Positions 39,045 through 56,566 of a stretch of DNA of 64,000 nt are shown here, one piece after another. The notes under the pieces are model-generated. The model searched no databases. It saw nothing but the letters and a program-made list of their open reading frames with translations, and was not told the origin of the DNA. The DNA is taken from assembly GCA_964509365.1 (NCBI GenBank), contig CAZDWN010000002.1:167671-231670 (forward strand), given 5' to 3'. The stretch is from an uncultured Pseudomonadales bacterium (GTDB taxonomy: Bacteria; Patescibacteriota; Microgenomatia; UBA1400; UBA12028). Every line of letters begins with the position of its first letter. Within the stretch, counting starts at the first letter, position 1. The position numbers and the translations under genes are program-made.

Positions 39045-42000
39045 TTAAGGGCCTACGCTCACATTCTGAGCGATGGCGTCATCAAATAAGATATCAAATG
39101 TTCTTCCAGTATTTACTTCACCGAGCACTAGACGACCTACATTCGTCGTTCCGAGATCATCGGAGGTGCTTGAGAACGTCGTGTCCAGCGTGCCGTCGTA
39201 CCAGACTTCATGCGTGCTTGAGGTACCGTTGATAATGCTGTGGAGTTCGACACTGTGCCAAGCATTTTGCGTTGGGACGGTCGTACTACACGTATTCGTC
39301 GCGGTCTTTTCATTGCGCAGACAGAGTTTGTTGGTAGTGCCATCGATATACACTTTGATGAGAGCTACATCACTACTATCTCGCATCGATACCAGTCCGA
39401 CACCAGATCCGACTGCTTGCGACTTCATGTTGAAGTATGTTCGCAGATACACATTTGGCTGCGAGGTCGACAACGTCTTACGCAAGTTCGTTGCAGCACT
39501 TGTCGTATTTCCCTCTGCGGCATAGGTGCCAGCGTGGACAGTCGTCGTCTGTGACGAGAAGTTGTTATTCGTCGTCCAGTAACTCAATGATCCTGACTCA
39601 AAATCTTCGCTCAAGATTAGCAGTGGCAACGCATAGTTTTGCGTTGTCGTATTGCCAGATGTCACCGTGACAGAGGCTAATTGAGTCGTGTACCCAGTTT
39701 TGCTTGCCGTTACCGTATACGTGCCTGATGCTACACCAGAGAGCGTATAGACACCTGATCCATTCGTGGTTGCAGAGCCTCCAGAGTAGGATACAGTGAC
39801 TCCACTGACTGCTGCAGACGTACCCGCGTCAGTTACTGTTCCCGTGATCGTACCGATATTGGATCCAGTCAACGCGATGTTGACTGTCGACGTACTGCCA
39901 GCGTAGACCGTGGCACTACCCGTGTTGTTCGTGTAATTGGTCTTACTCGCCGTCACAGTATAGGTTCCAGGAGCGACGTCGCTGAGCGTGTACACTCCAC
40001 TCCCATCAGCAGTGGTACTCCCACTACTGATACTGACTCCAGCTCCGCCGAGGGTCGCTGAGGATTGTGCATCAGTGATTGTTCCCGTGATCGTTCCTCC
40101 TGCACTTCCCACTCTGACATTTTGGACAACGACATCATCAAAGATGACATCGTAGGTTCGACCAGTTGTGGTCTCACCGAGATAGATTCTTCCAGTGTTG
40201 TTTGTCCCAAGATTTGCACTGCTACTCGTAAGAGTGGCAATGGATGTTCCATCGAGCCAAACTTCATGGGCACTTGCAGATGAACCATTGACGAAGACGT
40301 GCATCTCAATACTGTGCCAAGTGTTCGCCGTTGGTACCGTTGTCGAACACGTGCTTACTGCCGTAATATCATTTCTCATACAGAGCTTATTCGTTGTCCC
40401 ATCGATATAGACCTTGAACATTGCTCCGTCCGCAGCTGTTCGAGTCGCGATCAGTGAGACATTTGAGCCCGACGCCTGAGAAACAAGCTTATAATACGCT
40501 CGGTAATACACGTCGGCATACGATGATGCAAACGTTTTCTTTGCGTTCACGGCTACAGATCCAGTGGTACTTCCTTCTGCACTATACGTTCCGTAATGAA
40601 CGTTTGAAGTTTGCGCTGACATGCTTGCAGTTGAAGTCCAAGCGGTCATATTTCCTGTTTCGAAATCATCCGCAAATATTCGCAGAGGTAACGCGAAGTT
40701 TTGTGTGGTCGCAGTGGCCGCAGTGACGGTGACACTCGCTGCTTTGGTCGTATACCCCGTCTTTGATGCCGTTACGTCATAAGTGCCTGGTGTGACTCCG
40801 GTAATGGTATAGACACCTGACCCATTGGTCGTCGTGCTGCCACCTGAGTATGAGACAGTCACTCCACTGACCGCTGCAGAGGTGCCAGCATCAGTGACCG
40901 TGCCTGTGATATTTCCAGTGGTTGGAGCCAGTGAAAAGTTTTGAGTGACGGTTCCAGTCGTATTCATTGAGACATTTGGGTTCTGCGTCGTATACCCGGT
41001 CTTACTCGCAGTCACGGCAACGGTGCCTACCGGGACATTCACGAGAGTGTATGTTCCTGCGGCACTGGTGGTCGTACTTGATCCTGAGTAGGAGACAGTC
41101 ACACCACTGACATTTGCAGTTGAGAGCGAGTCAGTGACGGTCCCGGTGATCGACCCGACGGCTACACCTGACTGAGCATTTGCAAGGATGACATCATCGA
41201 AGACGACATCAAACGTGCGGCCAGAGTTCGATTCTCCCAAGAGAATTCTTCCGACATTGTTGGTACCCAGACTATCACTCGTACTCGTGAGTGAGGAGAC
41301 CGCAGTACCGTCATACCAGACTTCACGTGTACTTGAGGTACCATTGATGATGGTATGGAGTTCGACACTGTGCCAAGCATTTTGCGTTGGGACGGTCGTG
41401 CTGCACGTGTTCGTCAACGAGATTTCATTGCGATAACACAGTTTTCCTGTCGGTCCATCGATATACACTTTGTTGATTGCCGCATCAGCCGATGTGCGCA
41501 TAGCGAGCAGTCCCATACCTGATGCTGTTGACTGAGACTTCGTATAGAAATAAGTACGATAGTACAGATTGGAATATGTACTTGCCAACGTCTTTCGTAA
41601 GTTAGCAGTCGCACTTGCCACATTTCCTTCTGCAGCTTGCGTTCCAAGATTGTACGTAGTGCCCTGGACCGTTATCGCGCTACCAGTGTTGGTCGTCCAT
41701 GCACTCGTATTTCCTGATTCAAAATCATCACTGAAGATGACTGCTGGCATTGCAAAGTTTTGAGTAACGACACTTCCAGTGGTCGTCGCCACATTTGCAG
41801 ACTTTGTCTCATACCCAGACTTGCTGACAGAGATTGCCGCTGTACCAGTACCGAGACCGACAATCGCATAGTTTCCGCTTGCATCGGTCGTCGTAGATCC
41901 GCCTGGATAGGTGACTGTGGCTCCATTGACTGGACTTGTGGTCCCAGCATCAGTGACCGTACCGGTGATTGATGCATTGTTTACCAATGAGGCATTTTGA

Positions 42001-43754
42001 GTTGTCGTACTTGCTCCCCCGACAGAGACGTTGAGATTTTGAGTGATGTACGTCCCATTGCTGATGGTGACCGTGTAGTCAACCGCTGGGATATTGGTAA
42101 ACGAGTAATTTCCGCTTCCATCGGTTGTCGTACTTCCTGTCAACGCATTCCCAGTCGTTGAAGTCCCCGTGTACGATACAGTCGCTCCTGCAATTGCTGA
42201 GGACGTACCTGCATCCGTAACGGTTCCAGACATACTTCCGGCACCCTGACACGGGACGCTTCCGGAATCGAAGAGTGAACCATTGTTGATGGTGTAGAAC
42301 TCGTAGTTTGCCTTGTTTTTGGTAAACGTGAGTTTCATCGCACCGTAATCTGTCGATCCACCAAGTGAGGCCAAGACATTGGAGTCACTAGTGATGATAT
42401 TGGTTGACCCGTGACCACCAGTGCCTACCAAGAGCTCTGCTACTCCTGAGGCTGTTGCTGTTCCTGGTGACGAAAGTCCGATATTTTTCCAACTTTGGTA
42501 CGAGTGATCGTGACCGAAGAGAAAGAGAGATCCTTTGTTGTTTACCATTGAGTCCCACACTTCATTTTGAGCCGTGTCAGATCCATGTGATCCGATACTC
42601 CAGCGTGGATGATGGGCATACGCGACGATACATTTGTTTGCATTGGCGGCAAGGTCAGCATCGAGCCACGTCTGTTGTGTCGTTTTTCCACCATTGATTG
42701 TATAGGAGGTATTAGTTGAGGGAATTGACGTCCAAGCATCTTTCAATGTCAGCGTAGTTGCCGTATTACTAGCAATATAGTGAGTTTCACCACCTGAGGT
42801 CACGGTCTGGTTCACCCACTGATTAATGCGCCAGTTTTTACCTGAGTCAGTCAATATACCGACGCCACTCACACCACCATTACTAAACGTTGAGTTTGAA
42901 CTGGTGGTTGTTTGAATTTTTGAGTAGTTTGTATTCAAGGCAATGAAGTGCCATCCACCTGCGTCGTAACTATAGTAGTTTGGAATGTTATTCCAATACC
43001 ACATGTAGCCTGTAGCAGAAGTATCAGCGAGGTATTCGTGATTACCGACTACTGGGTTGGTTTTATTAGCAAACTGCCCGAATTGGACATCATAGCGGTT
43101 TCGAAATTCTTCGTAGCCACCTTCGTAGTACACATCTCCCAGATACAAAGCCATATCTGGATTCCAACCGTTCATCATATTTGAAACGGTGACGTTGTTT
43201 GTCTCATCACTACTTCCGTCTCCGACGACGGCGACGACCATATTTCCTGAAGGATTTGGTGTTGTCGGGCTAAACGTATTTGAATTCACGGGAGCTGAAG
43301 AAACGCTATTACTCAAAGTAATGGTTTGGGTTGCAGGCGTGGAGTATGAGTCTCCTCCAGCAGTGGTAATCAAGGCTTTGACACTGAGTGTCCCGTTGGT
43401 AGTGTCCACATAATGACTGGTGTGCCAAGTGAAACCTGTGGAGACACCTGAAGTGAGCTTGAAGTTACTCGCAAGGTAGACTTCAGAGCCTCCGTTCGGA
43501 GTATAGGTGAAGTACAATTGTTTGAGAGCTGCACCGTTGCGTAGAGTCAAAGAGTTGTAACTTCCAGTGACGGAAGTATCTCCGGTCAATGTGGCCGGAT
43601 TTGAAGAGGGAGCATCCAAACATACAGTGACATCGTAGTATGTTACGTCGTTAGTGGTGACACATGTCGAGGCGAATGCGTCTTTTGGAAAGAACAGAGC
43701 CAAGGCGAACACGAGTACAAGAGCACACAGGGAGGATTGAATGTGTTTCAGCAT
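39045..43754 (-). CDS. Giant secreted protein (1569 aa): N-terminal metallophosphatase, then three [CarboxypepD_reg-like beta-sandwich + ~190-aa LamG/ConA-like] repeat units
   Basis: Signal peptide, then the motifs VVAVVGDGSSDE, LYLGDVYYEGG, VVGNHEY and FGHDHSYQ. CarbopepD_reg-like modules (GTVTDAGTSAAVSGVTVSYSGGSTTTNGSGVYT) are present. Three LamG-like units begin [IF][FA][SA][DE]DFE[ST]G... and end ...G.TNN[VT]GR[IL].LGE...GRT[FY]D[VI].FDD. Confidence 0.7.
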   Translation of the reverse strand: MLKHIQSSLCALVLVFALALFFPKDAFASTCVTTNDVTYYDVTVCLDAPSSNPATLTGDTSVTGSYNSLTLRNGAALKQLYFTYTPNGGSEVYLASNFKLTSGVSTGFTWHTSHYVDTTNGTLSVKALITTAGGDSYSTPATQTITLSNSVSSAPVNSNTFSPTTPNPSGNMVVAVVGDGSSDETNNVTVSNMMNGWNPDMALYLGDVYYEGGYEEFRNRYDVQFGQFANKTNPVVGNHEYLADTSATGYMWYWNNIPNYYSYDAGGWHFIALNTNYSKIQTTTSSNSTFSNGGVSGVGILTDSGKNWRINQWVNQTVTSGGETHYIASNTATTLTLKDAWTSIPSTNTSYTINGGKTTQQTWLDADLAANANKCIVAYAHHPRWSIGSHGSDTAQNEVWDSMVNNKGSLFLFGHDHSYQSWKNIGLSSPGTATASGVAELLVGTGGHGSTNIITSDSNVLASLGGSTDYGAMKLTFTKNKANYEFYTINNGSLFDSGSVPCQGAGSMSGTVTDAGTSSAIAGATVSYTGTSTTGNALTGSTTTDGSGNYSFTNIPAVDYTVTISNGTYITQNLNVSVGGASTTTQNASLVNNASITGTVTDAGTTSPVNGATVTYPGGSTTTDASGNYAIVGLGTGTAAISVSKSGYETKSANVATTTGSVVTQNFAMPAVIFSDDFESGNTSAWTTNTGSAITVQGTTYNLGTQAAEGNVASATANLRKTLASTYSNLYYRTYFYTKSQSTASGMGLLAMRTSADAAINKVYIDGPTGKLCYRNEISLTNTCSTTVPTQNAWHSVELHTIINGTSSTREVWYDGTAVSSLTSTSDSLGTNNVGRILLGESNSGRTFDVVFDDVILANAQSGVAVGSITGTVTDSLSTANVSGVTVSYSGSSTTTSAAGTYTLVNVPVGTVAVTASKTGYTTQNPNVSMNTTGTVTQNFSLAPTTGNITGTVTDAGTSAAVSGVTVSYSGGSTTTNGSGVYTITGVTPGTYDVTASKTGYTTKAASVTVTAATATTQNFALPLRIFADDFETGNMTAWTSTASMSAQTSNVHYGTYSAEGSTTGSVAVNAKKTFASSYADVYYRAYYKLVSQASGSNVSLIATRTAADGAMFKVYIDGTTNKLCMRNDITAVSTCSTTVPTANTWHSIEMHVFVNGSSASAHEVWLDGTSIATLTSSSANLGTNNTGRIYLGETTTGRTYDVIFDDVVVQNVRVGSAGGTITGTITDAQSSATLGGAGVSISSGSTTADGSGVYTLSDVAPGTYTVTASKTNYTNNTGSATVYAGSTSTVNIALTGSNIGTITGTVTDAGTSAAVSGVTVSYSGGSATTNGSGVYTLSGVASGTYTVTASKTGYTTQLASVTVTSGNTTTQNYALPLLILSEDFESGSLSYWTTNNNFSSQTTTVHAGTYAAEGNTTSAATNLRKTLSTSQPNVYLRTYFNMKSQAVGSGVGLVSMRDSSDVALIKVYIDGTTNKLCLRNEKTATNTCSTTVPTQNAWHSVELHSIINGTSSTHEVWYDGTLDTTFSSTSDDLGTTNVGRLVLGEVNTGRTFDILFDDAIAQNVSVGP
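39047..41789 (-). repeat. Three intragenic ~1 kb duplications (about 41204-41789, 40304-40874 and 39047-39644) with long near-identical DNA stretches
   Basis: ttcgacactgtgccaagcattttgcgttgggacggtcgt occurs identically at about 41356 and about 39253; a diverged copy lies near 40300. Confidence 0.55.
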
Positions 43755-43811: not shown

Positions 43812-44195
43812 CTACTTGACTATGATTGTCCCCACATTTTGTGGCAACATTTGGTTGTGATAAGTGTACTTGCCTGCTTTGGTGAAGACATGGATTAGTG
43901 TTTGATTGGGAGCGAATCGTCCAAGGTTGAGTTCTGGATATTTTCTGTTGGCTGGGTAATCGTCCGAGTTGACTGACGCGGGGACGAGGCTAGCGTTTTT
44001 AAATCGCACTGCTTGCCCGGGTTTGATCGTCAGCTCTTGAGGACTAAAACCGCTTGACGTCAGTGTCACGGTATTTTCAGTTATGGGAGCTGCAGGATTC
44101 CCAGAAGACTGTCGTCGGTATTTGCCTTCAAATAAGAGAAAGCCAAAAAGGATGATCAATCCGCCGACGATATACATTTGCATTTTAGTGGTCAT
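43812..44195 (-). CDS. Second small membrane-anchored degenerate cupredoxin-like protein (start MTTKMQ at 44195; the ATG overlaps the TGA of the upstream giant gene as ATGA)
   Basis: GAGGAG SD 6 nt upstream, a TM helix, then SGFSPQELTIKPGQAVRFKNAS...GKYTYHNQMLPQNVGTIIVK. It is paralogous to 38573-39040 but lacks both the Cys and His ligands. Confidence 0.45.
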   Translation of the reverse strand: MTTKMQMYIVGGLIILFGFLLFEGKYRRQSSGNPAAPITENTVTLTSSGFSPQELTIKPGQAVRFKNASLVPASVNSDDYPANRKYPELNLGRFAPNQTLIHVFTKAGKYTYHNQMLPQNVGTIIVK

Positions 44196-47100
44196 TTTCT
44201 TCTCCTCACGGTGCTGGCAAGCGACTTTTGCTGCCAGAGATAATACTTCGTTTTTCGATATGGCACAAACCCAGTTCGCATGACAAAGGTACCAGACCAG
44301 TTTCCCGGTGCGCAATTGTTTTTCGCTCTGACTTTAAAGGTATAGTACGTGAATGGGCGGAGTGCTCCAATCTGGATGGGGACAGCGCCACTCGAAGAGG
44401 TGATTGGGAAGTTATATGCATAGTAGTCATCATGCCAGTTGACTCCATAGGAGACGACAAATGAGGTATACGGTCGTGTCGGAGGTGCCATATACAACGT
44501 CGCAGTTGTTGCACTTGCGTCAATTTGATAGATCACTGGCGCTCCCAATGGTGGCATATCGACACAAGTCGTTTCCGCGATCGACGTGGAACTCCCTGAT
44601 CCACTATCGGAGAGCAGGTTCTGTGTCGATACAAGAGTAAAGAGAGAGAACTGCGAGATGCTGCAAGTGATCTGGAACGCATCAAGGGAGTTGGAGCAGT
44701 TTGCTTGTGACCAGGCTCCGTTATGGTACTGCATGACCGCGATACTGGATCGATTGATCCGATTCAATTCGCTTTCACTATAGGCAATCGTCATCGAGAT
44801 CGGTTGATCAAAATCCGTGATCGTGTCAGTGATCGACGAAAATGCTTTGACGTCATACGTGTGATTGCCAATCGTGTTGTATCCATTTGGGAGGAATAGT
44901 CCTTGCAATGCAATTGATGAATCGAGCTGGTGAATTTGAAAGACTGCTGAGTGCGTACTGTACCCGATCGGCACATACAGTCTCATTCCATGACCATTCG
45001 CGTCAAAGCCATCCACGATTCCTCCTGAACTGAAGGCGACTTGTCCATCAGACTCTTTGAGGACTCCTGAATTTCCGCTACAGCCTTGCGACGTAAAGAT
45101 TTGATCGTCGCTGACGGCACTATCGCCTACATCATTGAGTGATTTGATTTGGACATGATAGGTCGAGCAATTGACGAGTCCGCTCAACGTGACCGAGTGA
45201 TTGGTTACCCCATCCAAATCTGCAGATGAGTTCGCAGTGTAAAAACTCGTGAGTCCGTACGAGAGCTCAGAGTCAGCCAGCAAATTCGTCGTCCACGTCA
45301 GGATTGCTCCAGTCGAGGTGGGAGTGATCGAAAGATCTGAGATCGTCAAATTCCCTGAGGGAGTTGGAGAAGAGGTCGCAATCATTCCAAAATTGACAGA
45401 GGTGTTTGTGGTGACTGACACATCTACTAGATTTGGCGTCGTCCCTGTATATCCATTGGGGAGCGTGTACGCCACTGTATACGTTCCTTGGTTGAGTGAC
45501 GAGAATGTGTAATTCCCACTAGAGTCCGTCGTCGTGGAGCTATTGCTGCTCCCAGATAATGAGATGAGTTGATTTGCGTATCCAGTCTCAGCATTGTCTT
45601 GCACGCCGTTTTGATTGGTATCGATATAGAGCGTACCAGTCAATGAGAATGTTGGACTTGGCGTCGGCGTTGGGGAGGTGTTGACGCCAGTCCCTTCTGG
45701 AAGATCTGGTAAGTACGTGTGGAGCACATCGATGTAATTTTCTTCAAACAGCGATCCATTTGGGTTGACTGTCGCTGAAGCAGTGCTATTTGCTTGAGAT
45801 ACTTCGACACCAGGCTCTACAGATGATCCTTCTCCCCATTCGTTCCAGGTCTCGACGAGCTTCCAAGTGGCGTTGGAAGCGACCATACTTTGAGCCGCTG
45901 TCGAGAATGCCGATAAATCGCGAGGCAGTCTGACAATATCGCCTGTGAGCCAGAACCCTGGCGAGATCATGTATGCATACGCTCCTTGACTGTCGGTACG
46001 GACTGCAGGCGCATACTGATGCCAAGAATCGGGCTGGCAAGCGTCCGTCGTATATCCTCCAAATACTTTCAACACGACGTAAAACGGCGTGACCGCAGCA
46101 TCATTAGCCTGTTTCCAACGAGCCGTCATGGTCGAATCGTTACAGTTGGTATTTGAAGTCCCTCCATCAGTTGGTGTCGCATAGACAAAGATAACTGGCT
46201 TGTTATTGATGCGCAGATACGATGATTGATTTGCATAGTTTGAAGCAATGTAATTGAGGTCGGATGTCAGTTGGCTGACACTTGGGTTGGTCGTCCCATT
46301 ACACGTTCCCCCTTCACACTCGTAGTACATCGCCCAGCGCAAATTCGGATACGGATTATCAGGTCGTGACATAAAATCGGTCAACTGGTGAGACAGGGCG
46401 ACATCCGATCGATCCCCTTGGCCCCACCAGGAAGCGATCGCGACTTCTTGCTTTGCGTGCGCCATTTTTGTGAGCTGCCATTTGAAGATGTTGTAGTCAT
46501 TTGAGCTATACAGCGACGTCGATGGAGTAAACGTATCGACCACTGGCTGCGGCAAATAGTTTGAGTACCAGTTAGCAGGTGGCACATGAGTGCCATTTGC
46601 ATCTGGATCAGCCCAAATTCCCCACTGATTCGAACCATCGGTATTCGGGTTCTTGTACCAGTTATAAAAGAACGTCGCGTAGTAGGGAGCGGCTGGCTGG
46701 AAAGCCGTGTCGACTGTTTTGATTCCGAAGTTTACCGTACTGTCATTGGTGAATGTCGCGGTAACCGGATCAGCTGTCGTAGCTGTATATCCGGCTGCAA
46801 GTCTTGCGGTGACAGAGTAACTACCTGAAGTCAAATTACTAAACGTGTAAATACCAAAGGAGTCGGTGGTCGAGGATGACGATCCGGTGCCAGACAATTT
46901 GACAGTCACACCTGCCTGCCCTGCTTCATTGAGGTCTTGCACTCCGTCGTGATTCGAGTCGAGATAGACGGTACCTGTGATCGATACTGGCACCGCTGGA
47001 GTCGGTGTCGGAGTCGGGCTCGGAGTCGGCGTGGCTGCAGCAGTCAAGAAATGACAGTCGGCGGAACCACTCTCAGTAAAAGTGCCGTTGGTAAAGTTTT

Positions 47101-50100
47101 GAGTACTAGCCGATGGGACAAATTCATAGTCAAAGCTAGATTGATGCAACGTCATCTTGAGGACGCCAAACGTAGTCGCGTCAAAGACAGCACTATTCAC
47201 GTCGAGACCATTTGAAGACAGTTGTGTGTGATTACGTCCGCCAGTCCCGACGACAAACTCAGTGATTCCATTGGTGTTATCGACAAATCCACTGTTGTTC
47301 GTAGGATAAAATCGCTCGTAATTGTGATCGTGCCCGACGAGGAACACATCAGCATGCGCTGCATAGAGATCGCCGTAGAGATTGTCCACACCAGCGTTGT
47401 GAGGTTGCTGACCTGAGGAGTAGCGAGGATGATGCGCATAGGCGAGGAGACACTTTCCAGCGTTCGCCGCTAGATCAGCCTTGAGCCACACATCTTGAGG
47501 CGAACCATTGTCACACCCACCAGCCTGCGAACAATTGGTGTTGAGAGCCATCAAGTGCCAATTGCCAATATTGTAGCTATAGTAGCCAAGCGATCTGTTC
47601 CCAGCATTGCCAGATTGGATCCCAACTCCATTGAAATAGTCGAAGTACCCTGCAGCTGATGTCGTTAGGTACTCGTGGTTTCCCACCGATGGAGCTGTTA
47701 TCGATTTAAACAGCCCCCAAGTCGGATCATAATGCGTTTGAAAATCAGCGAGTGAACCGTCTTCATATTGATTGTCTCCGAGTGGAAGTACTGCACTCGG
47801 ATTGATATCCGCTATCGTATCTGAAGTTGCTGTTTCCTGGCATGACGCACTGGTACTTCCAGCTCCGCAGGCAATGTCTCCTGCGGCGGCGATCACTGGA
47901 TCGCCAAACAAGTCAGAGAAGTCCTCAGTCCCGACGTCAGCAGCGTGCCCCAGCAGCGGAGTGAGTCCAAAAATATTTTGAATGGTCTTGACGTACGAAC
48001 TGTGAGAGTAGGTGCGACTGTTTGAATAGCCGTGCCCTTTGGTTTGCGGTGATATCGCGATCATGCCTATCGGACGATTCGTCGTGCTTCCGCTGTCTTC
48101 ATCCCACATAACAAAGATCGCAGCATGCCCCGCCTGATAGGTTGCTGAATTCAAGATTGTCGGCAAATTTGTCGAGAGCCACGTGTCGGCGTTTTTTATT
48201 TTGTCTTCGCCACCTGGACAACCTGCGTCGTGCCCATCATTACAGGTATTTGGAGTGATGAAGTTATAGTCAGCTACCCCATTGCCTGTACCAGCGAGGT
48301 CCGAGGAAAGCTGAGTAAAGTCAAACTCGTGAGCGATACAATACGTAGAGCTTGCATTTGGTGTCCCTATTCCGCCAGGAGCCAACAGTGATGAGACATC
48401 TTGGAAGAATACAAACGGACTGTGGCGAGGGATAAAGCGTGTCCCATTTCCGATTGGACAACCTGACGGTTTGTTTTCCTGATAGGCCCTCCAGACTTTC
48501 CCGGCGGTATTGAGTTGCGTAGCCAAATGAGCTGAGGACGTCGTCGACGACGACGTTGGCGTGTCGTCCACAGTAAACGTAATATCAGAAAAGATATTTG
48601 TCCCAGCTTCCATCCAGATATAATTAGGCTCAGATGGATGCAAGTATCCTGAGAGGGTTTCACTCGGCAGCACACTTCGATAATTTTGAGCGTACACGAC
48701 ATTGGAATGCACCGCATTCAAAGAGCCATCTGTATTCACACCACTGACGAGGCTATTGAGGTACGGGGCTGAAGTGGTATTGCCAATGACGTTAGCGCCA
48801 TCTTCGTTTTCAAGCACAATCGTGAATACTTTCGTGATGTTGGCTGAGAATGAGTACGGTACCACTGGTACTGGCGTCGGGACTGGTGTGGGCACCGGCG
48901 TCGGAGTTACGATGGTCGAGTTCTGGACCTGCAAGTCATCAAATGAGACACTGACAGGCATATTCGTCACTGCACCAAGTCGTCCAAGCAGTCCAATCGA
49001 GCCCGCTTGTTGCAAGATCGTAGCCGAATCTGTCGTCGTATAGTGCCAGGAGCTTGGTTCCGTATTCCCATCCAGCCACGCTCTGGCATTGATGGTCGTC
49101 GGTGCACCTCCTTGCAGTTGCACATGGACGTCCAGCCACGACCCAACCGTGTAGGTGAGCCCCGCGACTTGCGTCTCCGTCCCGAGCCCAGTCTCAGCGT
49201 TTGTGAGTATTTTTGAAGAACGTAAAAACACGTGACCTGATGGATCCACTCGTACCCATCCTCGATACTCATTGCCGCTCGAGACATGCCGTCCGATGAG
49301 GTAGACATAATTTCCAGTCGATACGTCTGGTAATTTGTCATATTTAATTTTGACCGTGTAGTCGACGTTTTGGGCACTCACATTATCAAGTCGCACTGTA
49401 CGCTGATTGGCACTTCCAGTGGCCGTCAGGACGATGGTCCCTTGTGCCCCATCGACCAAGAATGCACTTGCTGAACCTACTTGGGTATAGGAACCTCCAG
49501 TGTCTGCACTTCCCCATCCATTCGCGATGATGCGAGTAAATGTATCCATTGCAACTGTTGACGTCGTTGATTGTTGGATACCGACATTGCTCACCGTATT
49601 TGTCGAGAGTGGCACAGTGACCGGATTAGTCGTCGTCGAAAGGTACCCATTTGGGAGCGTGATTGTCTCGGTATACGTCCCCGCAGGTAGCGTCGCAAAT
49701 GTATAGTCACCGGTAGCATCGGTCGTCGTGGACGCAGACGTCGTTCCGGTAATCGAGACGGTAACGCCTTGATATCCACTTTCTGAGATGTCCTGCACGC
49801 CATTGCCATCCAAGTCCACGTACACTTTTCCACTCAGAGAATACGTTGGCGCCGCAGTTGGCGTCGGTGTCGGAGCGATCGTATCAGCGGTGAGTGAAGC
49901 GTACGTAAACAGGATTGGGGCGTTATTCACGGCTGCAGGAAGAGAGGATCGTACACCGACCGCACCTGGAGCCTGAAGACCAGATTCGGAGTCTGTCCCA
50001 GTAAAAGTCCAGCTCCCTGGCTCAGCATCACCATCTTTCCAAAGCTTCAAATTCATGGTTGTCGGATTGATCCCAGTGACCTGTGAGCGGATCCAGTAAT

Positions 50101-51340
50101 AAGTGTCAGCGACTGGCGTATCAGCCGCATTCACTTGCGTTCCGATATTGCTTTCGACTGCAGAGACCAGTTTGGTCCCCACCAATGCGATCGTCCCCGT
50201 TGTCGTGATCTTGGCACGGGCACGATATTCGTCGGATCCGATTCTTCGCAAGATGACACTGACCCCGGCATCTGCACTTGAAGCTGTCGTTGGCAATTTG
50301 TCGATCTTAAATTTAAATTTCATGTCTGCATTCTGGATGGAAACACTATTCAGGAGAGCATATCGACTGAGGCCAGCAGTGATTCCATTGATCGTCGCTT
50401 GTCCATTCGTCACAGCGTAGTCACTCGCAGTTCCTTCAAGTGTGTAATCACCTCCAGCATCTGCAGTTCCCCACCCACTGCTTACCGTACGTGCGTACGT
50501 ATCGGAAGCGCTCGAATAAATTGCCGGTGTCGGCGTCGGAGTAGGAGTTGGTGTCGCGGTAGGTGTCGGACTAGGAGTCGGTGACGGATCATTGTCAGTA
50601 AATGAGTAATCATCAAAGGTATAGAGGAGTGGAGCATTGGTAGAACTCGTAGACAAACGAGCTAAGATACCAGCGGAGCCAGCTGCCTGGAGTGCAACTG
50701 AAGAATCTGTACCAGTGTATTGAGCACTTCCAGGTTCACTATTCCCATCAGCCCAGGCTTTCATCGTCAATGTAGTAGGATTTGTCCCACTGACCGTGAA
50801 CCGAAGTTTGAGGTAATTATCCGCTGTATACGTGAGACCCGCAGCATTGCTCGATGTACCGATCACCGTCTCACTTCCTCCGACGAGGGCTGTTGCCTGG
50901 ATCGCTACCGTGCCATTGGTATTGAAGATGAGACGACCACGATACTCATTGCCTGTGGAGATATGACGGAGTGCCAGATACGCGACTTGGGTCGCTCCCG
51001 CTGAGACTTTATCAACCTTCACTTTCATGGTTGCATCACCGTCGAGCGAGCTCACGCCCGCAAGAAATGCATTTTTATTTTGATTGGCAGCCGTAAGACT
51101 CATCGTCCCTTCGCTGCCCGTGACATTAAACTCTGCAGCAGTACTGATACCGGTCCCGCTGACGGTCCATGCGCCTCCAGTGGTAGCAGTTCCCCACCCG
51201 CTGCTCACTGATCGCGTGAACGAATCCGACGCAGGAGTACCAGCTCCAAAGACGACGGCTCTCGAGAGACCAAAAAATATCGCGAGCATGATGGCGACAA
51301 TAGGGATAAATAGAGCTGGTCGATCGATCGTTCTGTGCAT
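44192..51340 (-). CDS. Giant secreted multi-enzyme megaprotein (2382 aa): three ~220-aa N-terminal repeats, three Cna-B/SdrD-B domains, a PLC/AcpA-type phosphoesterase, a metallophosphatase, a GH99-like domain, FN3 domains and a basic C-terminal tail
   Basis: Signal/TM at the N-terminus. The N-terminal repeats share [FY][TA]R.VSSGWG[TS]A..GG.[WY]T. SdrD-B-like domains are present (KVYVDLDGNGVQDISESGYQGVTVSITG...DATGDYTF). The phosphoesterase region has TIVLENEDGANVIG...FVMWDEDSG. The metallophosphatase has AAAGDIACGAGS, LGDNQYEDG, SVGNHEY and VGHDHNYERF. A GH99-like YYATFFYNWYKNPNTDGSNQW...ASWWGQ region and P/T linkers are also present. Confidence 0.75.
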   Translation of the reverse strand: MHRTIDRPALFIPIVAIMLAIFFGLSRAVVFGAGTPASDSFTRSVSSGWGTATTGGAWTVSGTGISTAAEFNVTGSEGTMSLTAANQNKNAFLAGVSSLDGDATMKVKVDKVSAGATQVAYLALRHISTGNEYRGRLIFNTNGTVAIQATALVGGSETVIGTSSNAAGLTYTADNYLKLRFTVSGTNPTTLTMKAWADGNSEPGSAQYTGTDSSVALQAAGSAGILARLSTSSTNAPLLYTFDDYSFTDNDPSPTPSPTPTATPTPTPTPTPAIYSSASDTYARTVSSGWGTADAGGDYTLEGTASDYAVTNGQATINGITAGLSRYALLNSVSIQNADMKFKFKIDKLPTTASSADAGVSVILRRIGSDEYRARAKITTTGTIALVGTKLVSAVESNIGTQVNAADTPVADTYYWIRSQVTGINPTTMNLKLWKDGDAEPGSWTFTGTDSESGLQAPGAVGVRSSLPAAVNNAPILFTYASLTADTIAPTPTPTAAPTYSLSGKVYVDLDGNGVQDISESGYQGVTVSITGTTSASTTTDATGDYTFATLPAGTYTETITLPNGYLSTTTNPVTVPLSTNTVSNVGIQQSTTSTVAMDTFTRIIANGWGSADTGGSYTQVGSASAFLVDGAQGTIVLTATGSANQRTVRLDNVSAQNVDYTVKIKYDKLPDVSTGNYVYLIGRHVSSGNEYRGWVRVDPSGHVFLRSSKILTNAETGLGTETQVAGLTYTVGSWLDVHVQLQGGAPTTINARAWLDGNTEPSSWHYTTTDSATILQQAGSIGLLGRLGAVTNMPVSVSFDDLQVQNSTIVTPTPVPTPVPTPVPVVPYSFSANITKVFTIVLENEDGANVIGNTTSAPYLNSLVSGVNTDGSLNAVHSNVVYAQNYRSVLPSETLSGYLHPSEPNYIWMEAGTNIFSDITFTVDDTPTSSSTTSSAHLATQLNTAGKVWRAYQENKPSGCPIGNGTRFIPRHSPFVFFQDVSSLLAPGGIGTPNASSTYCIAHEFDFTQLSSDLAGTGNGVADYNFITPNTCNDGHDAGCPGGEDKIKNADTWLSTNLPTILNSATYQAGHAAIFVMWDEDSGSTTNRPIGMIAISPQTKGHGYSNSRTYSHSSYVKTIQNIFGLTPLLGHAADVGTEDFSDLFGDPVIAAAGDIACGAGSTSASCQETATSDTIADINPSAVLPLGDNQYEDGSLADFQTHYDPTWGLFKSITAPSVGNHEYLTTSAAGYFDYFNGVGIQSGNAGNRSLGYYSYNIGNWHLMALNTNCSQAGGCDNGSPQDVWLKADLAANAGKCLLAYAHHPRYSSGQQPHNAGVDNLYGDLYAAHADVFLVGHDHNYERFYPTNNSGFVDNTNGITEFVVGTGGRNHTQLSSNGLDVNSAVFDATTFGVLKMTLHQSSFDYEFVPSASTQNFTNGTFTESGSADCHFLTAAATPTPSPTPTPTPAVPVSITGTVYLDSNHDGVQDLNEAGQAGVTVKLSGTGSSSSTTDSFGIYTFSNLTSGSYSVTARLAAGYTATTADPVTATFTNDSTVNFGIKTVDTAFQPAAPYYATFFYNWYKNPNTDGSNQWGIWADPDANGTHVPPANWYSNYLPQPVVDTFTPSTSLYSSNDYNIFKWQLTKMAHAKQEVAIASWWGQGDRSDVALSHQLTDFMSRPDNPYPNLRWAMYYECEGGTCNGTTNPSVSQLTSDLNYIASNYANQSSYLRINNKPVIFVYATPTDGGTSNTNCNDSTMTARWKQANDAAVTPFYVVLKVFGGYTTDACQPDSWHQYAPAVRTDSQGAYAYMISPGFWLTGDIVRLPRDLSAFSTAAQSMVASNATWKLVETWNEWGEGSSVEPGVEVSQANSTASATVNPNGSLFEENYIDVLHTYLPDLPEGTGVNTSPTPTPSPTFSLTGTLYIDTNQNGVQDNAETGYANQLISLSGSSNSSTTTDSSGNYTFSSLNQGTYTVAYTLPNGYTGTTPNLVDVSVTTNTSVNFGMIATSSPTPSGNLTISDLSITPTSTGAILTWTTNLLADSELSYGLTSFYTANSSADLDGVTNHSVTLSGLVNCSTYHVQIKSLNDVGDSAVSDDQIFTSQGCSGNSGVLKESDGQVAFSSGGIVDGFDANGHGMRLYVPIGYSTHSAVFQIHQLDSSIALQGLFLPNGYNTIGNHTYDVKAFSSITDTITDFDQPISMTIAYSESELNRINRSSIAVMQYHNGAWSQANCSNSLDAFQITCSISQFSLFTLVSTQNLLSDSGSGSSTSIAETTCVDMPPLGAPVIYQIDASATTATLYMAPPTRPYTSFVVSYGVNWHDDYYAYNFPITSSSGAVPIQIGALRPFTYYTFKVRAKNNCAPGNWSGTFVMRTGFVPYRKTKYYLWQQKSLASTVRRRK
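48910..51235 (-). repeat. Three diverged intragenic repeats encoding the ~220-aa N-terminal modules of the megaprotein
   Basis: The protein repeats span residues about 35-250, 270-490 and 590-810, separated by PTPTPT linkers. Confidence 0.5.
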
Positions 51341-51400: not shown

Positions 51401-52108
51401 TCACTGTATGAACTCAAAGTTATTCATAAGCGTGGCTAGGAACGCATCATCGACTGGTTTGCCGGCAATAATGAGGTTGTATTGCAAATTGTTCTTGATA
51501 AAGTACAGTCGAGTCTCGCCTTTGGAGCTGCAGGTAATATTCTTAAACAAGAGACCGGAGACTCCGGCGATCGAGACTGGCTCGCCTTTGAGTGTCTCCA
51601 CGTCTTCACACTCGGAGCTATTGAGCACGTAGTCATGCACAGTCTGCGGAACAAGATTTTGACTATACTGCAACAGGACATATGGAGCTTTATTCAAAGT
51701 AGGAGAGTCAAGCTCGACGACATTAGAAACTGGATGGTACGAAGTCGTATTTCTCACGTGCACATAATTGACGTGAATGATCAAATCTGAGGGGTACTTG
51801 AGGCGAAATTTTCCGTCGTTGCTTTCATACACGGTCAGTCCAGTCACTTTGTCCACCGTGAGGATTGGTTTTGGCTCATTCGTATCTGCAAAACTCATTT
51901 GTGATCGACGAATATTGATCGACGCGACGCGAAAGACGAGATAGGCAAGGACGATATACCCACCCCAGAGGATTATTTTTTGTGACGGGACGGATGTCTT
52001 CATATTGCTACAATACACTATGGTCCATCCTTCAGACAAGATTCGATACCGACACCTCTTCTCGGAGACTACTCGCCCGTTGCCACTGAAAGTGGAAGTG
52101 AACGACAC
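51401..52108 (-). CDS. Hypothetical membrane-anchored protein (likely start MKTSV near 52003)
   Basis: TM helix IILWGGYIVLAYLVF. Divergent from the plus-strand metallophosphoesterase gene. Confidence 0.4.
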   Translation of the reverse strand: MSFTSTFSGNGRVVSEKRCRYRILSEGWTIVYCSNMKTSVPSQKIILWGGYIVLAYLVFRVASINIRRSQMSFADTNEPKPILTVDKVTGLTVYESNDGKFRLKYPSDLIIHVNYVHVRNTTSYHPVSNVVELDSPTLNKAPYVLLQYSQNLVPQTVHDYVLNSSECEDVETLKGEPVSIAGVSGLLFKNITCSSKGETRLYFIKNNLQYNLIIAGKPVDDAFLATLMNNFEFIQ

Positions 52109-52786: not shown

Positions 52787-53155
52787 TCAACGCTTCGTGA
52801 TTATCGATTTCACTTTCGATAAAAGTTCATCCATTTCAAATGGTTTGGCGATAAAATCGTCAGCACCGGCAGCTTTCGCTGATTCCTTGACGTCGCGACT
52901 TGCCGATACCATGATGATTGGCAGTGCCGCAGTCGACTTCTTTCCTTTCAAATACTTGCAAACATCTCTCCCATCTGCTCCCGAGAGCCAAATGTCCAGG
53001 AGTATCAAGTCAGGCAGCGGCGCAGACAGCGCTCTGACCACCTTGGTGTCATCGGTGGTGCGCACGCTATATCCTTCAGTTTCCAAGATCATGGTCATAG
53101 CGTCGGCGATCGCTGGATCATCTTCGGCAACGAGGATAGCATATGGTGAGTTCAT
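52787..53155 (-). CDS. Stand-alone response-regulator receiver domain (CheY-like)
   Basis: ILVAEDDPAIADAM...LILLDIWLSGADG...PIIMVSA...GADDFIAKPF has the full acidic pocket and conserved Lys. Confidence 0.8.
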   Translation of the reverse strand: MNSPYAILVAEDDPAIADAMTMILETEGYSVRTTDDTKVVRALSAPLPDLILLDIWLSGADGRDVCKYLKGKKSTAALPIIMVSASRDVKESAKAAGADDFIAKPFEMDELLSKVKSIITKR

Positions 53156-54774
53156 AGGGTTGATCGTTTCTTTGAATGCTTTCGTTCGGACTGGACTGGA
53201 AGTGTAAAAAAGAACTGTGAACCTCCCGCCTCACCACTTTGCACCCAAATCTTCCCTCCTTCGCGCTTGATAATTTCTGAGGAGATAAAGAGTCCTAGTC
53301 CTGGATACGTATTTTGGTCAGGTCCGCTGACGCGAAAAAATTGTTCAAATACTTTACTTTGCTTCTCTTTGGGAATTCCAATCCCAAAATCTTGGACACA
53401 GAGCGTGATCTTGTCAGACAATGTGGAGGTAACGATTATTTTCGTTCCTTCTGAAGAATACTTAATTGCGTTGGAGAGTAAATTGGTGATGACTTGACCC
53501 ACTCGTTCACGATCTGCATGTATCATCGCAGACTTGTCTAATTTCGATAGTATGGTGTGTTTTTCCGTTGTGATTTGAAGCTCATCGACCACTTCTTTGA
53601 CGAGCTCATTAAAATCAAAATCTGCTTCATGGAATTCCAGTCGACCAGATTGAATTTTCGTCACATCGAGAAGATCACCGATGAGATTGGTGAGTTTATT
53701 GATTTGGGCATCCATTTTTTCAAGCTGCGCCACAGCGAGCTTATCTCCTTTTCGCGAGAAGATGGTCTGCAAGACTTGACCGTACGCTTTGATACTGGTC
53801 ACCGGTGTCTTGAGTTCATGACTTGCGATCCCTAAAAATTGATCCTTTTGACGTTCGAGATCCTTCTGTCTAGTGACATCACTGATGATAGATGCAGCCG
53901 CGATGACCACGTGTGATTTGTTGTGAATCGGTGCCGAGCTCACTTGCAACGATACTTTTTTACCATCTCTTCGCTCAAACTCCATCTCTTTCCCAATGAT
54001 TGGCTTTCCGGTTTTGAGAGCTTGAAATAATGGAGATTGGTTTGGATTCAAGGGTTTCCCGTTTATTTTTTCGTCACTCAGTGAGTCTTTCCCAATGATG
54101 AAACCAAGTGGAATCTGTACTCCTATTATTTCATCGATTTTTTGATTTCGCTTTGTGACTCTCCCTTCGCTGTCGGTAATGATAACGCCAACTGGCAACT
54201 GCGCAATAATCGTCTCCAGTCTTCGTCTCCCGTCAGATTCCTTCTCGATCAGCTGATCAATACTTTGCTTCAGCCAGCCGATGACGCCAGCAAGGAAGTA
54301 ATACAGTGCCGAAAGCGCAAATGTCGTCTCGATCGCTGCATCAAGTTGCTCGCCACTATACCCACGCGTATATATGATGTACATGAAATAGGCAATGGTG
54401 ACACTGGCGGAAATGAAGCCACCTCGAATTCCATCCCGAAAAGCAAAGTAGATGGCTAAAGAGGCACTGATGAAAATGATATATGCCCCGACGATATTTG
54501 GATTGTGAAGTATTCCGAGTGCCAAGACTTCCGACAAGATAGCCATGCCTAGCGTCGCCAAAAAAGGTAAGACTATTGAGTACTTTCCTTCACCGAGATG
54601 CGCCATGGGATTGAGATACGAGATAAGGCGCTTCATAAAGTCGTTGGCGATAAGGCCTCGGTAGCAGGGCCATGGATGACTTCTCCCGACGATGTAAATC
54701 GAGACCCATGGCAAGGACAGTCCCATGATCGCTCCATCGTATTCCAGTTCACTGCACAACCCATGTGCGTGCAC
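53152..54774 (-). CDS. Membrane sensor histidine kinase with a PAS domain (likely start MKRLISY at 54636)
   Basis: Multiple TM helices, a PAS-like region, an H-box IASHELKTPVTSIKAY, an N-box NLLSNAIKYS and a G-box DFGIGIP...GLGLFIS. Confidence 0.8.
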   Translation of the reverse strand: MHAHGLCSELEYDGAIMGLSLPWVSIYIVGRSHPWPCYRGLIANDFMKRLISYLNPMAHLGEGKYSIVLPFLATLGMAILSEVLALGILHNPNIVGAYIIFISASLAIYFAFRDGIRGGFISASVTIAYFMYIIYTRGYSGEQLDAAIETTFALSALYYFLAGVIGWLKQSIDQLIEKESDGRRRLETIIAQLPVGVIITDSEGRVTKRNQKIDEIIGVQIPLGFIIGKDSLSDEKINGKPLNPNQSPLFQALKTGKPIIGKEMEFERRDGKKVSLQVSSAPIHNKSHVVIAAASIISDVTRQKDLERQKDQFLGIASHELKTPVTSIKAYGQVLQTIFSRKGDKLAVAQLEKMDAQINKLTNLIGDLLDVTKIQSGRLEFHEADFDFNELVKEVVDELQITTEKHTILSKLDKSAMIHADRERVGQVITNLLSNAIKYSSEGTKIIVTSTLSDKITLCVQDFGIGIPKEKQSKVFEQFFRVSGPDQNTYPGLGLFISSEIIKREGGKIWVQSGEAGGSQFFFTLPVQSERKHSKKRSTL

Positions 54775-56144
54775 ACTGCAGACAATGCGCAGACTTTGCC
54801 ATGTTCATCTCTGCTAACCGCAATCGGCTTGCCTCCACGAGATATGACAGTACCTTCGCCCTTTCGCAATGATGTGAGATTGACGTCGTCGTGAGGAAGG
54901 ATCCGAGAAGAATAACCTTTGACTACTCCACAACTGAGATCTTTGAGCTCACCTACCATAGCCAACGGTTTCAAGCGTGTAGGATCATACAGCGATGCCC
55001 ACTCATTTTCCTTTTCGGTGATGAGATCAGCAAGAAGCATGCCAGAGAGCACCCCAGTACTCATCCCCCACTCGCCAAACCCAGTGACTACAAAGATGTG
55101 ATCAGCCGATGGCATTTTCCCGATGAGTGGCACACGATCAAGCGAGCCAGCGTCTTGCGCTGACCACTCAAAATCTACCTTCTTGAGAGAAAATCGAGTC
55201 ATGACCGCAGTTTTGAACTCGTCAAAATACGCTTGCGTGTCAGCATGTTGTCCTGCCGGATGCGCTTGACCTCCCACGATCAGCCAACGCGTATCTCCAT
55301 CCGTAAACGAGCGATAGGTGTACTCGTCATCACCGAGTCCAATATACATATCAGTTGGGAATTCATCTGGACAAATAAAAGCGAGTGCGTACGAACGCAT
55401 TTGGTTGAGTCGAAGGTACAGATGATCGTGGTCAAAGATGGGGTAATTGGTTGCGATGACGACATCATCGGCAGTTATGGCATGTGACCCGGACTCTAGG
55501 AGGATCGGAGACTCATTTTTGACCGTTTTGACTGTTGTGATCCTGGTGTGCTCAAATATTTGACCTCCGTTGTCCACAAAACGTTTGGCCAGCTCCAGTA
55601 AAAATGCTCGCGGATGAAACTGCGCTTGATTCTCGATTTTCAGAGCAGAGGTAATTTTCGCAGGGAAGTGATCGACTACATCTACGAGCTCGATCGGTAA
55701 CTTGGACTTTTGAAGCACATCGAACTCGCTTTAGATGCTCTCTTCTTGGCCACTAGACCCGGTATACAGATACGCACTTCGTCGTTCAAATCCACACTCG
55801 ATGTGTTCTTTTGTGATGACTTCTGCCAGATGATCGATCGCCTGTTGATTCGATCGGGCGTACATCAAGGCTTTGTCTTCACCAAAATGAGACTTGAGAA
55901 AGCCATACTTTGCGTCATGCAAGATTGTTACTTTGGCCGTCGTAAAACTGGTCGTCCCTTGCCCTATTCGGCCAGCTTCAAACAGGGCGACTTTTTTTCC
56001 TCGAAATTGCAACTCGTAGGCACTCATCAAACCAGCTATGCCGCCTCCTATGACCGCCACTTCAACTTGTAGATTTTTTGACAATTTTGGATACGAGGAT
56101 TTGGCAGAGGTTGCGGTCCAGACGGATTGATGACGAGATTCCAT
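54633..56144 (-). pseudogene. FAD-dependent oxidoreductase (DAO family) fused to a C-terminal Rieske [2Fe-2S] domain, interrupted by a single in-frame TAA at 55731-55733
   Basis: The upstream fragment (55731-56144) has the FAD dinucleotide fold VAVIGGGIAGLMSAYEL...VALFEA. The downstream fragment (54633-55718, GTG start in the same frame) continues the DAO fold and ends with the Rieske motifs CTHMGC...CPCHGSRF. The order ...EESI-TAA-SEFDV... is in one frame. Confidence 0.5.
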
Positions 56145-56209
56145 CGCTATAGCATACGTTCGACACGTAAGAAAAATGTAAAAATCGAGTGAGAATGGTA
56201 AAATAAGAA

Positions 56210-56566
56210 ATGCCTTCAGAAAAAGACAACTTCGACCTTTCAGATTTAGCAAACCAGTTCACCGACGAAGCAGATGAGTCAGTGAGAGCGTTTGAGAAGC
56301 TCACAAACATCGTAGGAGGTGAGAGGGAAGCGAAATGTTTGCAAGTCCTCAAACATGCTCCACTGGTCATTCGAACAAAAATTGATCCCAGCTCTACTCA
56401 TGACGTCAGAATTGCGTCTGAGCTCGATTTTGACATCGGTGAAGCTGCTATGTCCCTGTGTTCACAAGGATTTGCAGCGGAGACTGCTGCCCCCTCTGAT
56501 TTGACAGTCCAGTCAGTATCAATTACAGAAAAAGGGAAACAAGTACTTTCAGATCTTGGTTTGTAA
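56210..56566 (+). CDS. Hypothetical protein
   Basis: 118-aa ORF. Confidence 0.3.
   Translation: MPSEKDNFDLSDLANQFTDEADESVRAFEKLTNIVGGEREAKCLQVLKHAPLVIRTKIDPSSTHDVRIASELDFDIGEAAMSLCSQGFAAETAAPSDLTVQSVSITEKGKQVLSDLGL

Follow-up and report, generated by a model that had tools for sequence, protein, structure and literature searches.

Purple acid phosphatases (PAPs) are broad-specificity phosphatases, and family PF04185, which includes AcpA and the phospholipases C (PLC), forms a superfamily within the alkaline-phosphatase fold. SapM of M. tuberculosis is a broad-specificity monoesterase that acts on phosphoinositides and many monoesters; its residues E59, N60, S95 (in the 'PSE' motif), H160, H204, D238 and E239 are each essential for activity, and K159 contributes to phosphoinositide binding (PMC6635428). 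The chemistry of glycoside hydrolases of family GH99 needs an alpha-manno-configured sugar at the -1 subsite, and in BxGH99 the base that acts on O2 is E333 and the acid/base residue is E336 (PMC6001782). The motif EW[H/G]E is catalytic throughout GH99, and the aromatic residue at the -2 subsite is W in the mannanase type and Y in the glucose type (PMC11025385). In this study, we analysed a 64,000-nucleotide stretch (the window) of contig CAZDWN010000002.1, from an uncultured bacterium of the Patescibacteriota lineage, and in particular one gene whose 2382-aa product, here called the megaprotein, joins relatives of all three enzyme types in a single polypeptide.

Each catalytic domain of the megaprotein belongs to a known family, and none represents a new kind of enzyme. 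We found no paper describing the megaprotein architecture, the recurrent association of GH99-like with PAP-like (and in some cases SapM-like) domains and the gene cassette that accompanies it, or the lectin-fold family of its N-terminal repeats, for which no family model is available. We read the megaprotein, with a probability of about 0.55, as a tethered or released exoenzyme that would dephosphorylate and cleave a phosphorylated, probably mannose-containing glycan.

Three catalytic domains in one reading frame

The megaprotein consists, from its N-terminus, of a signal or anchor segment, three predicted concanavalin A-like (ConA-like) repeats of ~215 aa (R1 to R3, with stalk domain 1 before R3), a PF04185 domain, a PAP-like domain, stalk domain 2, a GH99-like domain, stalk domain 3 and an FN3 region (Table 1). 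The open reading frame (ORF) listing of the window agreed with the single 2382-aa ORF proposed by an earlier sequence-only reading, with no interruption of the frame, and the GC content of the gene is ordinary relative to the window. A very long, modular and repetitive protein with Pro/Thr linkers could be suspected of arising from repeats collapsed into a chimera or from read-through of separate genes. However, the DNA repeats inside the ORF have diverged strongly: none is longer than 59 nt, their identities range from 63 to 81%, and collapsed repeats are therefore no concern. Two independent metagenomic orthologues were also found: P0001 (2238 aa, NCBI metagenome assembly) is 56% identical over megaprotein aa 277-2367 and has the same domain order with one ConA-like repeat fewer, and P0002 (JGI) is 60% identical over aa 551-2362. 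Flanking genes are common to the megaprotein and both orthologues. The architecture is thus conserved, and an artefact has almost no chance of being the explanation. A C-terminal frameshift relative to the longer tails of the orthologues was rejected; what follows in the next frame is a gene of its own, cupredoxin-like and conserved, that overlaps through ATGA. The nearest relatives of the megaprotein and its domains, among the best matches, came from metagenome-assembled genomes (MAGs) of Patescibacteria and from metagenomes. A look-up of the identical sequence found no public record of the megaprotein, and by its best matches the source is probably a Patescibacteria bacterium.

When aa 826-1148 were scanned alone, PF04185 was matched with 60.6 bits (cut-off 23; E 1.9e-16), and the family was not reported in the whole-protein Pfam and NCBIfam scans of the megaprotein. 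Almost all of the 2712 homologues of this domain are single-domain proteins of 280-400 aa, and many are labelled phosphatidylinositol-3-phosphatase at JGI, which suggests SapM-like enzymes. The key residues are E844, N845, S903 (HPSEPNY), R972-H973, H1037, D1080 and E1081. All of these except R972 were noted as invariant in a 47-sequence alignment and correspond, in order and motif context, to the seven essential SapM residues listed above (E59 to E239), thereby providing the nucleophile (S903) and the metal ligands (E844, N845, D1080 and E1081). The position of SapM K159 is taken by R972, a conservative replacement of the family consensus K. The AlphaFold model of the domain (pLDDT 90.7) had AcpA (2d1g) as its best match in a Foldseek search of the PDB (E 1e-13, TMq 0.65), followed by PLC and NPC structures. 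The single domain sequence gave no match in a PDB search, and the 47-sequence profile gave weak PLC matches alone. The evidence points to a predicted short SapM-like phosphomonoesterase subfamily. A phospholipase C was considered less likely, given that the closest relatives are short and SapM-like and that the nucleophile motif is PSE.

The PAP-like domain abuts the PF04185 domain without a linker (LFGDP/VIAAAGD). All seven metal ligands (D1155, D1189, Y1192, N1221, H1303, H1337 and H1339) and the five PAP motifs (GD1155, GD1189xxY1192, GN1221H with H1222, H1303 and GH1337xH1339) are present, and the series GD, GDxxY, GNH, H and GHxH did not vary among 14 related domains taken from the window and from further genomes. 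A profile of these 14 domains was searched against the PDB, and all 16 significant matches were PAPs, with the wheat PAP phytase 6gja as the best (E 1e-28); the single sequence reached mammalian (rat) PAP at E 2e-4. Pfam, including Metallophos (PF00149), gave no match to aa 1145-1436 even at E<=10, although Metallophos was detected in the window paralogues and in P0002. The FN3-like N-terminal domain that precedes the catalytic domain in plant-type PAPs is absent, and the PF04185 domain sits directly ahead. On its motifs and profile matches, aa 1148-1432 is assigned to the PAP-type binuclear metallophosphatases.

PF16317 matched the GH99-like domain with 37.9 bits in the scan of the full protein and with 43.4 bits when the domain was scanned alone (cut-off 33). 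This match covers the N-terminal half alone (profile positions 5-162 of 341), and the C-terminal end of the domain matches the related PF14307 (WbsX). Nearly the whole domain was aligned to Bacteroides GH99 structures using phmmer (E 8e-12 to 1e-7), with 4acy at E 8e-12 and the 5lyr alignment spanning domain residues 12-307. NEWGEG aligns with NEWHEG of BtGH99 and BxGH99, so that E1834 and E1837 correspond to BxGH99 E333 and E336. SWWGQGD aligns with tWWGesd and tWWNeqd of the same enzymes, and by this alignment WW1638-1639 would supply the mannanase-type Trp of the -2 subsite. The H[I/L]EPY motif is not kept; the megaprotein has YYECE, in which the Glu (E1674) alone is retained. The domain is considered a distant, catalytically plausible GH99 member.

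The sequence-only reading had placed a PLC/acid-phosphatase (AcpA) family domain, a PAP-like metallophosphatase and a GH99-like TIM barrel, three different hydrolase types, in one polypeptide. All three assignments passed the profile, structure and catalytic-residue checks: PF04185 and GH99 both scored above their cut-offs, the PF04185 nucleophile and ligands were in place, the PAP assignment stood on motifs and profile though Pfam was silent, and the expected Glu pair of GH99 was found as EWGE. The results also reveal an annotation blind spot, as whole-protein Pfam scans overlook two of the three catalytic domains. In the precomputed Pfam lists of P0001 and P0002, PF04185 was missed and the metallophosphatase was missed or weakly detected. 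Routine annotation would name the megaprotein and both orthologues as SdrD/CarboxypepD_reg/GH99 proteins, overlooking two enzymes.

Fusion and adjacency of the enzymes in other genomes

Scanning a single genome of each species with peptide patterns yielded 24 loci with this GH99 subfamily. The patterns were derived from GH99 and PF04185 peptides and thus carried no bias towards phosphatases, and PAP-like domains in the loci were scored using a local hidden Markov model of PAP-like domains. A PAP-like domain accompanied the GH99-like domain in 17 of the 24 loci, in the same ORF in eight (L006, L013, L014, L017, L019, L023, L025 and L026) and in an adjacent gene in nine (L007, L010, L012, L015, L016, L020, L021, L022 and L027). 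Among the loci with the pair are some from Gammaproteobacteria, Chloroflexota, Actinomycetota and Patescibacteria, and one from a Nitrososphaerales archaeon. Pfam confirmed four arrangements: a gammaproteobacterial MAG has GH99-Metallophos, Ca. Flexifilum has GH99-Metallophos-CBM96, a Saccharibacteria chromosome has GH99 and then Metallophos-CBM96, and the Nitrososphaerales archaeon has Metallophos-LamG-GH99. A PF04185 domain accompanies the pair in no fewer than three further arrangements: GH-metallophosphatase-phosphoesterase in one ORF (L023), separate metallophosphatase, phosphoesterase and GH-phosphoesterase genes (L007), and a GH-phosphoesterase protein (P0315).

A three-gene cassette encoding, in this order, a GH99-like protein, a ~170-aa N-terminally anchored membrane protein and a PAP-like protein was found in the window and in L006, L010, L012, L015 and L029. 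The PAP-like gene carries CBM96 where Pfam was run (window and L010), and the GH99-like gene is sometimes fused to a PAP-like domain. The cassette occurs in Gammaproteobacteria and on Patescibacteria-type contigs, the middle gene of L029 being PF27226 (AF_1845), and no description of it was found in the literature searched.

Domain orders differ between lineages, which implies that the fusions arose repeatedly and independently, and repeated fusion of this kind is a classic sign that enzymes act in one process. The combination had been called very unusual, which needs qualifying: the trio is fused or adjacent, in other orders, in other lineages, and the GH99-like and PAP-like pair is common across phyla. 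The GH99 subfamily, of which at least 800 relatives were detected and none is characterised, thereby gains a candidate function.

Scaffold modules and gene neighbourhood

The repeats R1, R2 and R3 are mutually 35-45% identical. The AF2 model of R3, built from a 32-sequence alignment, reached a pLDDT of 96.3, and a Foldseek search of the PDB gave 398 matches at E<=1e-3; the best were the GH43 C-terminal domain, legume and L-type lectins and BoNT Hc (TM-score 0.55-0.65, ~9% identity). On this model the repeats, previously described as of unknown fold, are ConA-like jelly rolls of the lectin/glucanase fold, and they likely target carbohydrates. None of them matched a Pfam or CBM family. An exhaustive HMMER search recovered 9659 cluster representatives at E<=1e-3, of which 6375 remained at E<=1e-10, usually with two or three tandem copies inside large proteins. 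The ~210-aa lectin-fold module thus forms a large domain family (~9,700 cluster representatives in public data) without a Pfam model. Its motif reads F.R.v..GWG.Ad.GG.yt ... PTT ... W..G..EP, and its hosts include Patescibacteria, Chloroflexota and Actinomycetota, the last with 'PKD domain-containing proteins' of Microbacteriaceae (P0004-P0060 and P0320-P0462).

The sole hydrophobic segment of the megaprotein, at aa ~8-30, is N-terminal and preceded by basic residues in the Kyte-Doolittle scan, and we infer from this that the protein is Sec-exported, with the N-terminus either cleaved or anchoring. The stalk domains and PT linkers described between the catalytic domains were recovered: PF17210 matched with 152 bits in three copies, a PDB search matched SdrD at E 1.4e-12, and Pro/Thr linkers occupy five between-module positions. 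C-terminal FN3 domains had also been proposed, and one is clear (30.6 bits), whereas the second is weak (19.6 bits, under the cut-off) and a ~170-aa domain without a Pfam or PDB sequence match lies between the two. The same FN3-X-FN3 module, with X as the ~170-aa domain, was observed in the large proteins P0003, P0033, P0044, P0049 and P0061. A domain paralogous to the second FN3-like domain closes the gene at 60735..62648, and a basic tail (aa 2358-2382) ends the megaprotein.

The megaprotein gene stands first in a co-directional array whose genes encode exported paralogues, among them one GH99+PAP fusion and another four exported proteins of the PAP-like type (Table 1). Two array products carry CBM96, which has been shown to bind alginate, an anionic polymer (PMC9971899). 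The ATG of the next gene overlaps the megaprotein stop (ATGA) behind a GGAG 6 nt upstream, which suggests translational coupling of the megaprotein with the cupredoxin-like protein. The product of the gene upstream of the megaprotein is 33% identical to the L001 upstream gene and 39% identical to an L002 gene. The orthologues of the 1629-aa and 1569-aa proteins stand side by side and adjoin a GH99+FN3 gene on contig L028 (1..5812), and the array is therefore conserved as a whole in this relative. The wider setting consists of bacterial housekeeping genes, including SecA, SerRS, LysRS, GreA and the F-type ATP synthase operon.

Table 1 Features of the megaprotein and of its gene array (positions in the window)
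Feature	Position	Strand	Residues (aa)	Remarks
Megaprotein gene	44192..51340	minus	1-2382	single ORF, ATG start, 2382 aa + stop
Predicted signal peptide or signal anchor	51242..51340	minus	1-33	MHRTIDRPALFIPIVAIMLAIFFGLSRAVVFGAG; Kyte-Doolittle scan
ConA-like repeat R1 (predicted fold)	50591..51235	minus	36-250	repeat alignment
ConA-like repeat R2 (predicted fold)	49877..50512	minus	277-488	repeat alignment
SdrD B-like stalk domain 1	49565..49840	minus	501-592	PF17210/PF13620
ConA-like repeat R3 (predicted fold)	48917..49555	minus	596-808	AF2-modelled copy
SapM/AcpA-type PF04185 phosphoesterase domain	47900..48856	minus	829-1147	
PAP-type metallophosphatase domain	47045..47899	minus	1148-1432	
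SdrD B-like stalk domain 2	46718..46987	minus	1452-1541	Pfam scan
GH99-like TIM-barrel domain	45701..46708	minus	1545-1880	WW1638-1639, E1674, E1834-W-G-E1837
SdrD B-like stalk domain 3	45377..45649	minus	1898-1988	Pfam + PDB search
FN3 domain	45095..45355	minus	1996-2082	PF00041, 30.6 bits
~170-aa domain	44591..45094	minus	2083-2250	conserved in P0001, P0002, P0003, P0033, P0044
FN3-like domain	44270..44569	minus	2258-2357	weak, 19.6 bits, under cut-off
235-aa upstream protein	51401..52108	minus		no family; homologues beside both orthologues
Transmembrane + cupredoxin-like protein	43812..44195	minus		conserved downstream of orthologue P0002
1569-aa PAP-like Metallophos + 6 CarboxypepD_reg protein	39045..43754	minus		same co-directional array
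Second transmembrane + cupredoxin-like protein (PF13473)	38573..39040	minus		array member
1629-aa DUF7483 x5 + FN3 + PAP_N-like protein	33673..38562	minus		array member
GH99-like + PAP-like fusion paralogue	31436..33628	minus		51% / 53% identical to megaprotein domains; cassette gene 1
173-aa membrane-anchored protein	30911..31432	minus		cassette middle gene; homologues in L006, L010, L012, L015, L029
PAP-like Metallophos + Metallophos_C + CBM96 protein	28753..30906	minus		cassette gene 3
CBM96 x2 + PAP-like protein	26499..28751	minus		PAP-like domain 48% identical to that of the megaprotein

Other features of the window were recorded. Each of the two small cupredoxin-like (PF13473) genes comes after a giant exported phosphatase gene, and their C-terminal motifs (YTYHNQM and DTLHPG) do not clearly show the Cys that usually serves as copper ligand; that these proteins load the PAP site with metal would be a guess. 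The window also encodes, at 3654..4934 (plus strand), a NAGPA 'phosphodiester glycosidase' (uncovering-enzyme-like, PF09992), which was likewise found at L028 11848..13041 and L030 2065..3036, 3-4 kb from the GH99-like gene on related small-genome contigs. Its presence fits the processing of sugar-1-phosphodiester polymers. It was not found in the other 25 loci, and NAGPA was rejected as a general partner, occurring only in the window and on two contigs of the type of the Candidate Phyla Radiation (CPR). A DAO FAD-dependent oxidoreductase with a Rieske domain is apparently split over two adjoining ORFs at 54633..56252 (minus), with DAO profile positions 2-94 in ORF 55731..56252 and positions 126-353 plus the Rieske domain in ORF 54633..55718. 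The latter overlaps a histidine-kinase ORF by ~140 nt, and the split may reflect a frameshift, a pseudogene or a misplaced start. This kinase, a PAS-HisKA-HATPase sensor (53152..54774, minus) upstream of the array, scored similarly against the WalK, PnpS and PhoR models, under every cut-off, and a reading as PhoR regulation was set aside; no response-regulator gene was recognised beside it. Promoter and terminator scans of the window gave chance-level results, no tRNA was found in it, and NCBIfam added nothing for the catalytic domains.

Proposed function and comparison with known systems

In the proposed mechanism, the megaprotein would be exported through Sec, after which it would be set free or stay attached by the one hydrophobic helix at its N-terminus. 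Its three ConA-like modules with the lectin fold, together with the Ca-binding SdrD-B stalks, would hold out three enzymes: a SapM-type serine/metal phosphomonoesterase, a PAP-type binuclear metallophosphatase fused to it without a linker and, on its own stalk, a GH99-type retaining endo-alpha-mannosidase-like glycosidase. All three may act on one class of extracellular substrate, phosphorylated and probably alpha-mannose-containing glycans or glycolipids; fungal phosphomannan, actinobacterial phosphatidylinositol mannosides (PIM) and lipomannan, and glycosyl-phosphate wall polymers are candidates. Phosphate would be removed by the two phosphatases and the glycan cleaved by the GH99 domain, and a cell that can synthesise little for itself would thereby obtain phosphate and oligosaccharides. 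A substrate that is both glycosidic and phosphorylated is favoured because of the recurrent fusion together with the lectin-fold and CBM modules. A phosphorylated mannose-type glycoconjugate is proposed because GH99 requires an alpha-manno sugar at -1, because SapM acts on phosphoinositides and many monoesters, because PAPs are broad in specificity and because CBM96 binds an anionic polysaccharide. The domain identities, intact catalytic residues, conserved architecture and recurrent association are observed, whereas export, tethering, joint action, substrate and nutritional role are proposed on these grounds. No support was found for the processive degradative machine suggested earlier.

Several observations weigh against this reading. 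No phosphatase lies near the GH99-like gene in seven of the 24 loci, about 118 of the 120 close GH99-like homologues listed are stand-alone single-domain proteins, and most PF04185 homologues are likewise stand-alone, so that fusion is the exception. The other-genome contexts of the pair gave no transporter or regulator clue, and the histidine kinase near the array is only generically WalK/PnpS/PhoR-like. The GH99-like domain is distant from characterised enzymes and has YYECE in place of H[I/L]EPY, and its specificity may therefore be other than alpha-mannan. Both phosphatase families are mainly known as broad monoesterases, which would fit generic phosphate scavenging.

Such a scavenging exoenzyme, in which the GH99-like domain and the lectin-like repeats share the scaffold and have no common substrate with the phosphatases, is considered unlikely. 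The breadth of SapM and of PAPs, the five further PAP-like exported proteins of the array with their varied binding modules and the stand-alone state of most homologues of each domain all agree with it, but GH99-like/PAP-like fusion and adjacency recurring in varied orders across two domains of life are hard to explain if the enzymes are uncoupled, and carbohydrate-binding-type modules (ConA-like, CBM96 and LamG) accompany the phosphatases. The megaprotein could instead serve an epibiotic CPR bacterium in attacking or attaching to its host, with the lectin-like repeats binding the host and the enzymes dismantling phospho-glycoconjugates of its envelope, such as teichoic-type polymers or PIM/lipomannan, for access or nutrients. 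The Patescibacteria MAGs among the best relatives, the MSCRAMM-like SdrD-B stalk architecture, the action of SapM on phosphoinositides (PMC6635428) and the NAGPA genes in the window and near GH99-like genes on two related contigs would suit this role, which we regard as rather improbable, as the enzyme pair also occurs in free-living-type lineages (Gammaproteobacteria, Chloroflexota and Nitrososphaerales). Maturation or turnover of the cell's own surface glycan or phosphoglycan is very improbable: no genes for glycan biosynthesis lie around the megaprotein gene in the window and the gene contexts elsewhere are mixed, against which can be set the C-terminal match to WbsX (PF14307), a family named from O-antigen clusters, and, in the Saccharibacteria locus L022, a GT4 glycosyltransferase gene located two genes upstream of the GH99-like one.

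The reading of the megaprotein as an exoenzyme for phosphorylated glycans can be extended, with clear doubt, to a widespread and unrecognised extracellular pathway. GH99-like and PAP-like enzymes (the latter often with CBM96) and a facultative SapM-like enzyme might together mineralise phosphorylated mannose-type glycans, for example, phosphomannan, PI-mannosides/lipomannan or glycosyl-phosphate wall polymers, in organisms ranging from Gammaproteobacteria to ammonia-oxidising archaea. The ~170-aa membrane protein encoded between the GH99-like and PAP-like genes in several lineages might belong to this pathway, of which the lectin-targeted, stalked megaprotein of some CPR bacteria would be the welded form. 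If the three enzymes share a substrate, the megaprotein and the conserved GH99-like/PAP-like pairing provide a clue to how microbes of soil and groundwater, CPR bacteria with reduced genomes and ammonia-oxidising archaea among them, obtain phosphate and sugar from phosphorylated glycans, a poorly understood pool of organic phosphorus.

Among known systems, the PhoD/GlpQ-type systems of B. subtilis scavenge phosphate from wall teichoic acid. To our knowledge, PhoD has no glycosidase partner. The likeness to the megaprotein is one of concept, not of sequence comparison, in that secreted phosphoesterases with a PAP-like site mine anionic wall polymers; the neighbouring paralogues of the megaprotein carry the alginate-binding type of module CBM96 (PMC9971899). 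With the staphylococcal Sdr/MSCRAMM adhesins the megaprotein shares three SdrD B-like Ca-binding stalk domains. However, it lacks the A-domain, the SD repeats and the LPXTG motif, its NCBIfam scores fall far under the MSCRAMM cut-offs, and its stalks would act as spacers between enzymes.

The resemblance to M. tuberculosis SapM and F. tularensis AcpA comprises PF04185 membership, the short SapM-like format of ~300 aa, the PSE nucleophile motif (S903), the E-N and D-E metal ligands, the two substrate histidines and a predicted fold nearest to AcpA. The megaprotein domain differs in its ~15% identity to solved structures, in R972 at the position of SapM K159, and in being embedded in a 2382-aa multi-enzyme protein, whereas SapM and AcpA are free secreted enzymes. 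Purple acid phosphatases such as kidney bean PAP, 6gja and mammalian TRAP/ACP5 share the seven ligands and five motifs, including the Tyr of GDxxY; in contrast, the megaprotein copy escapes the Pfam Metallophos model, has the PF04185 domain in place of the FN3-like N-terminal domain and contains Cys-rich inserts (GDIACG...SC and NTNCSQAGGC). The Bacteroides endo-alpha-1,2-mannanases (BtGH99 4acy and BxGH99 5lyr) and human MANEA align with the catalytic domain and agree in the EWGE pair (E333/E336) and the Trp at the -2 subsite position. Identity to them is low, with PF16317 covering the N-terminal half only and PF14307 the end, and YYECE replaces H[I/L]EPY. No report of a PAP-like partner for characterised GH99 enzymes was found in the literature, whereas the large subfamily to which the megaprotein domain belongs consists of ~400-aa soil and groundwater proteins that are typically paired with a PAP-like phosphatase.

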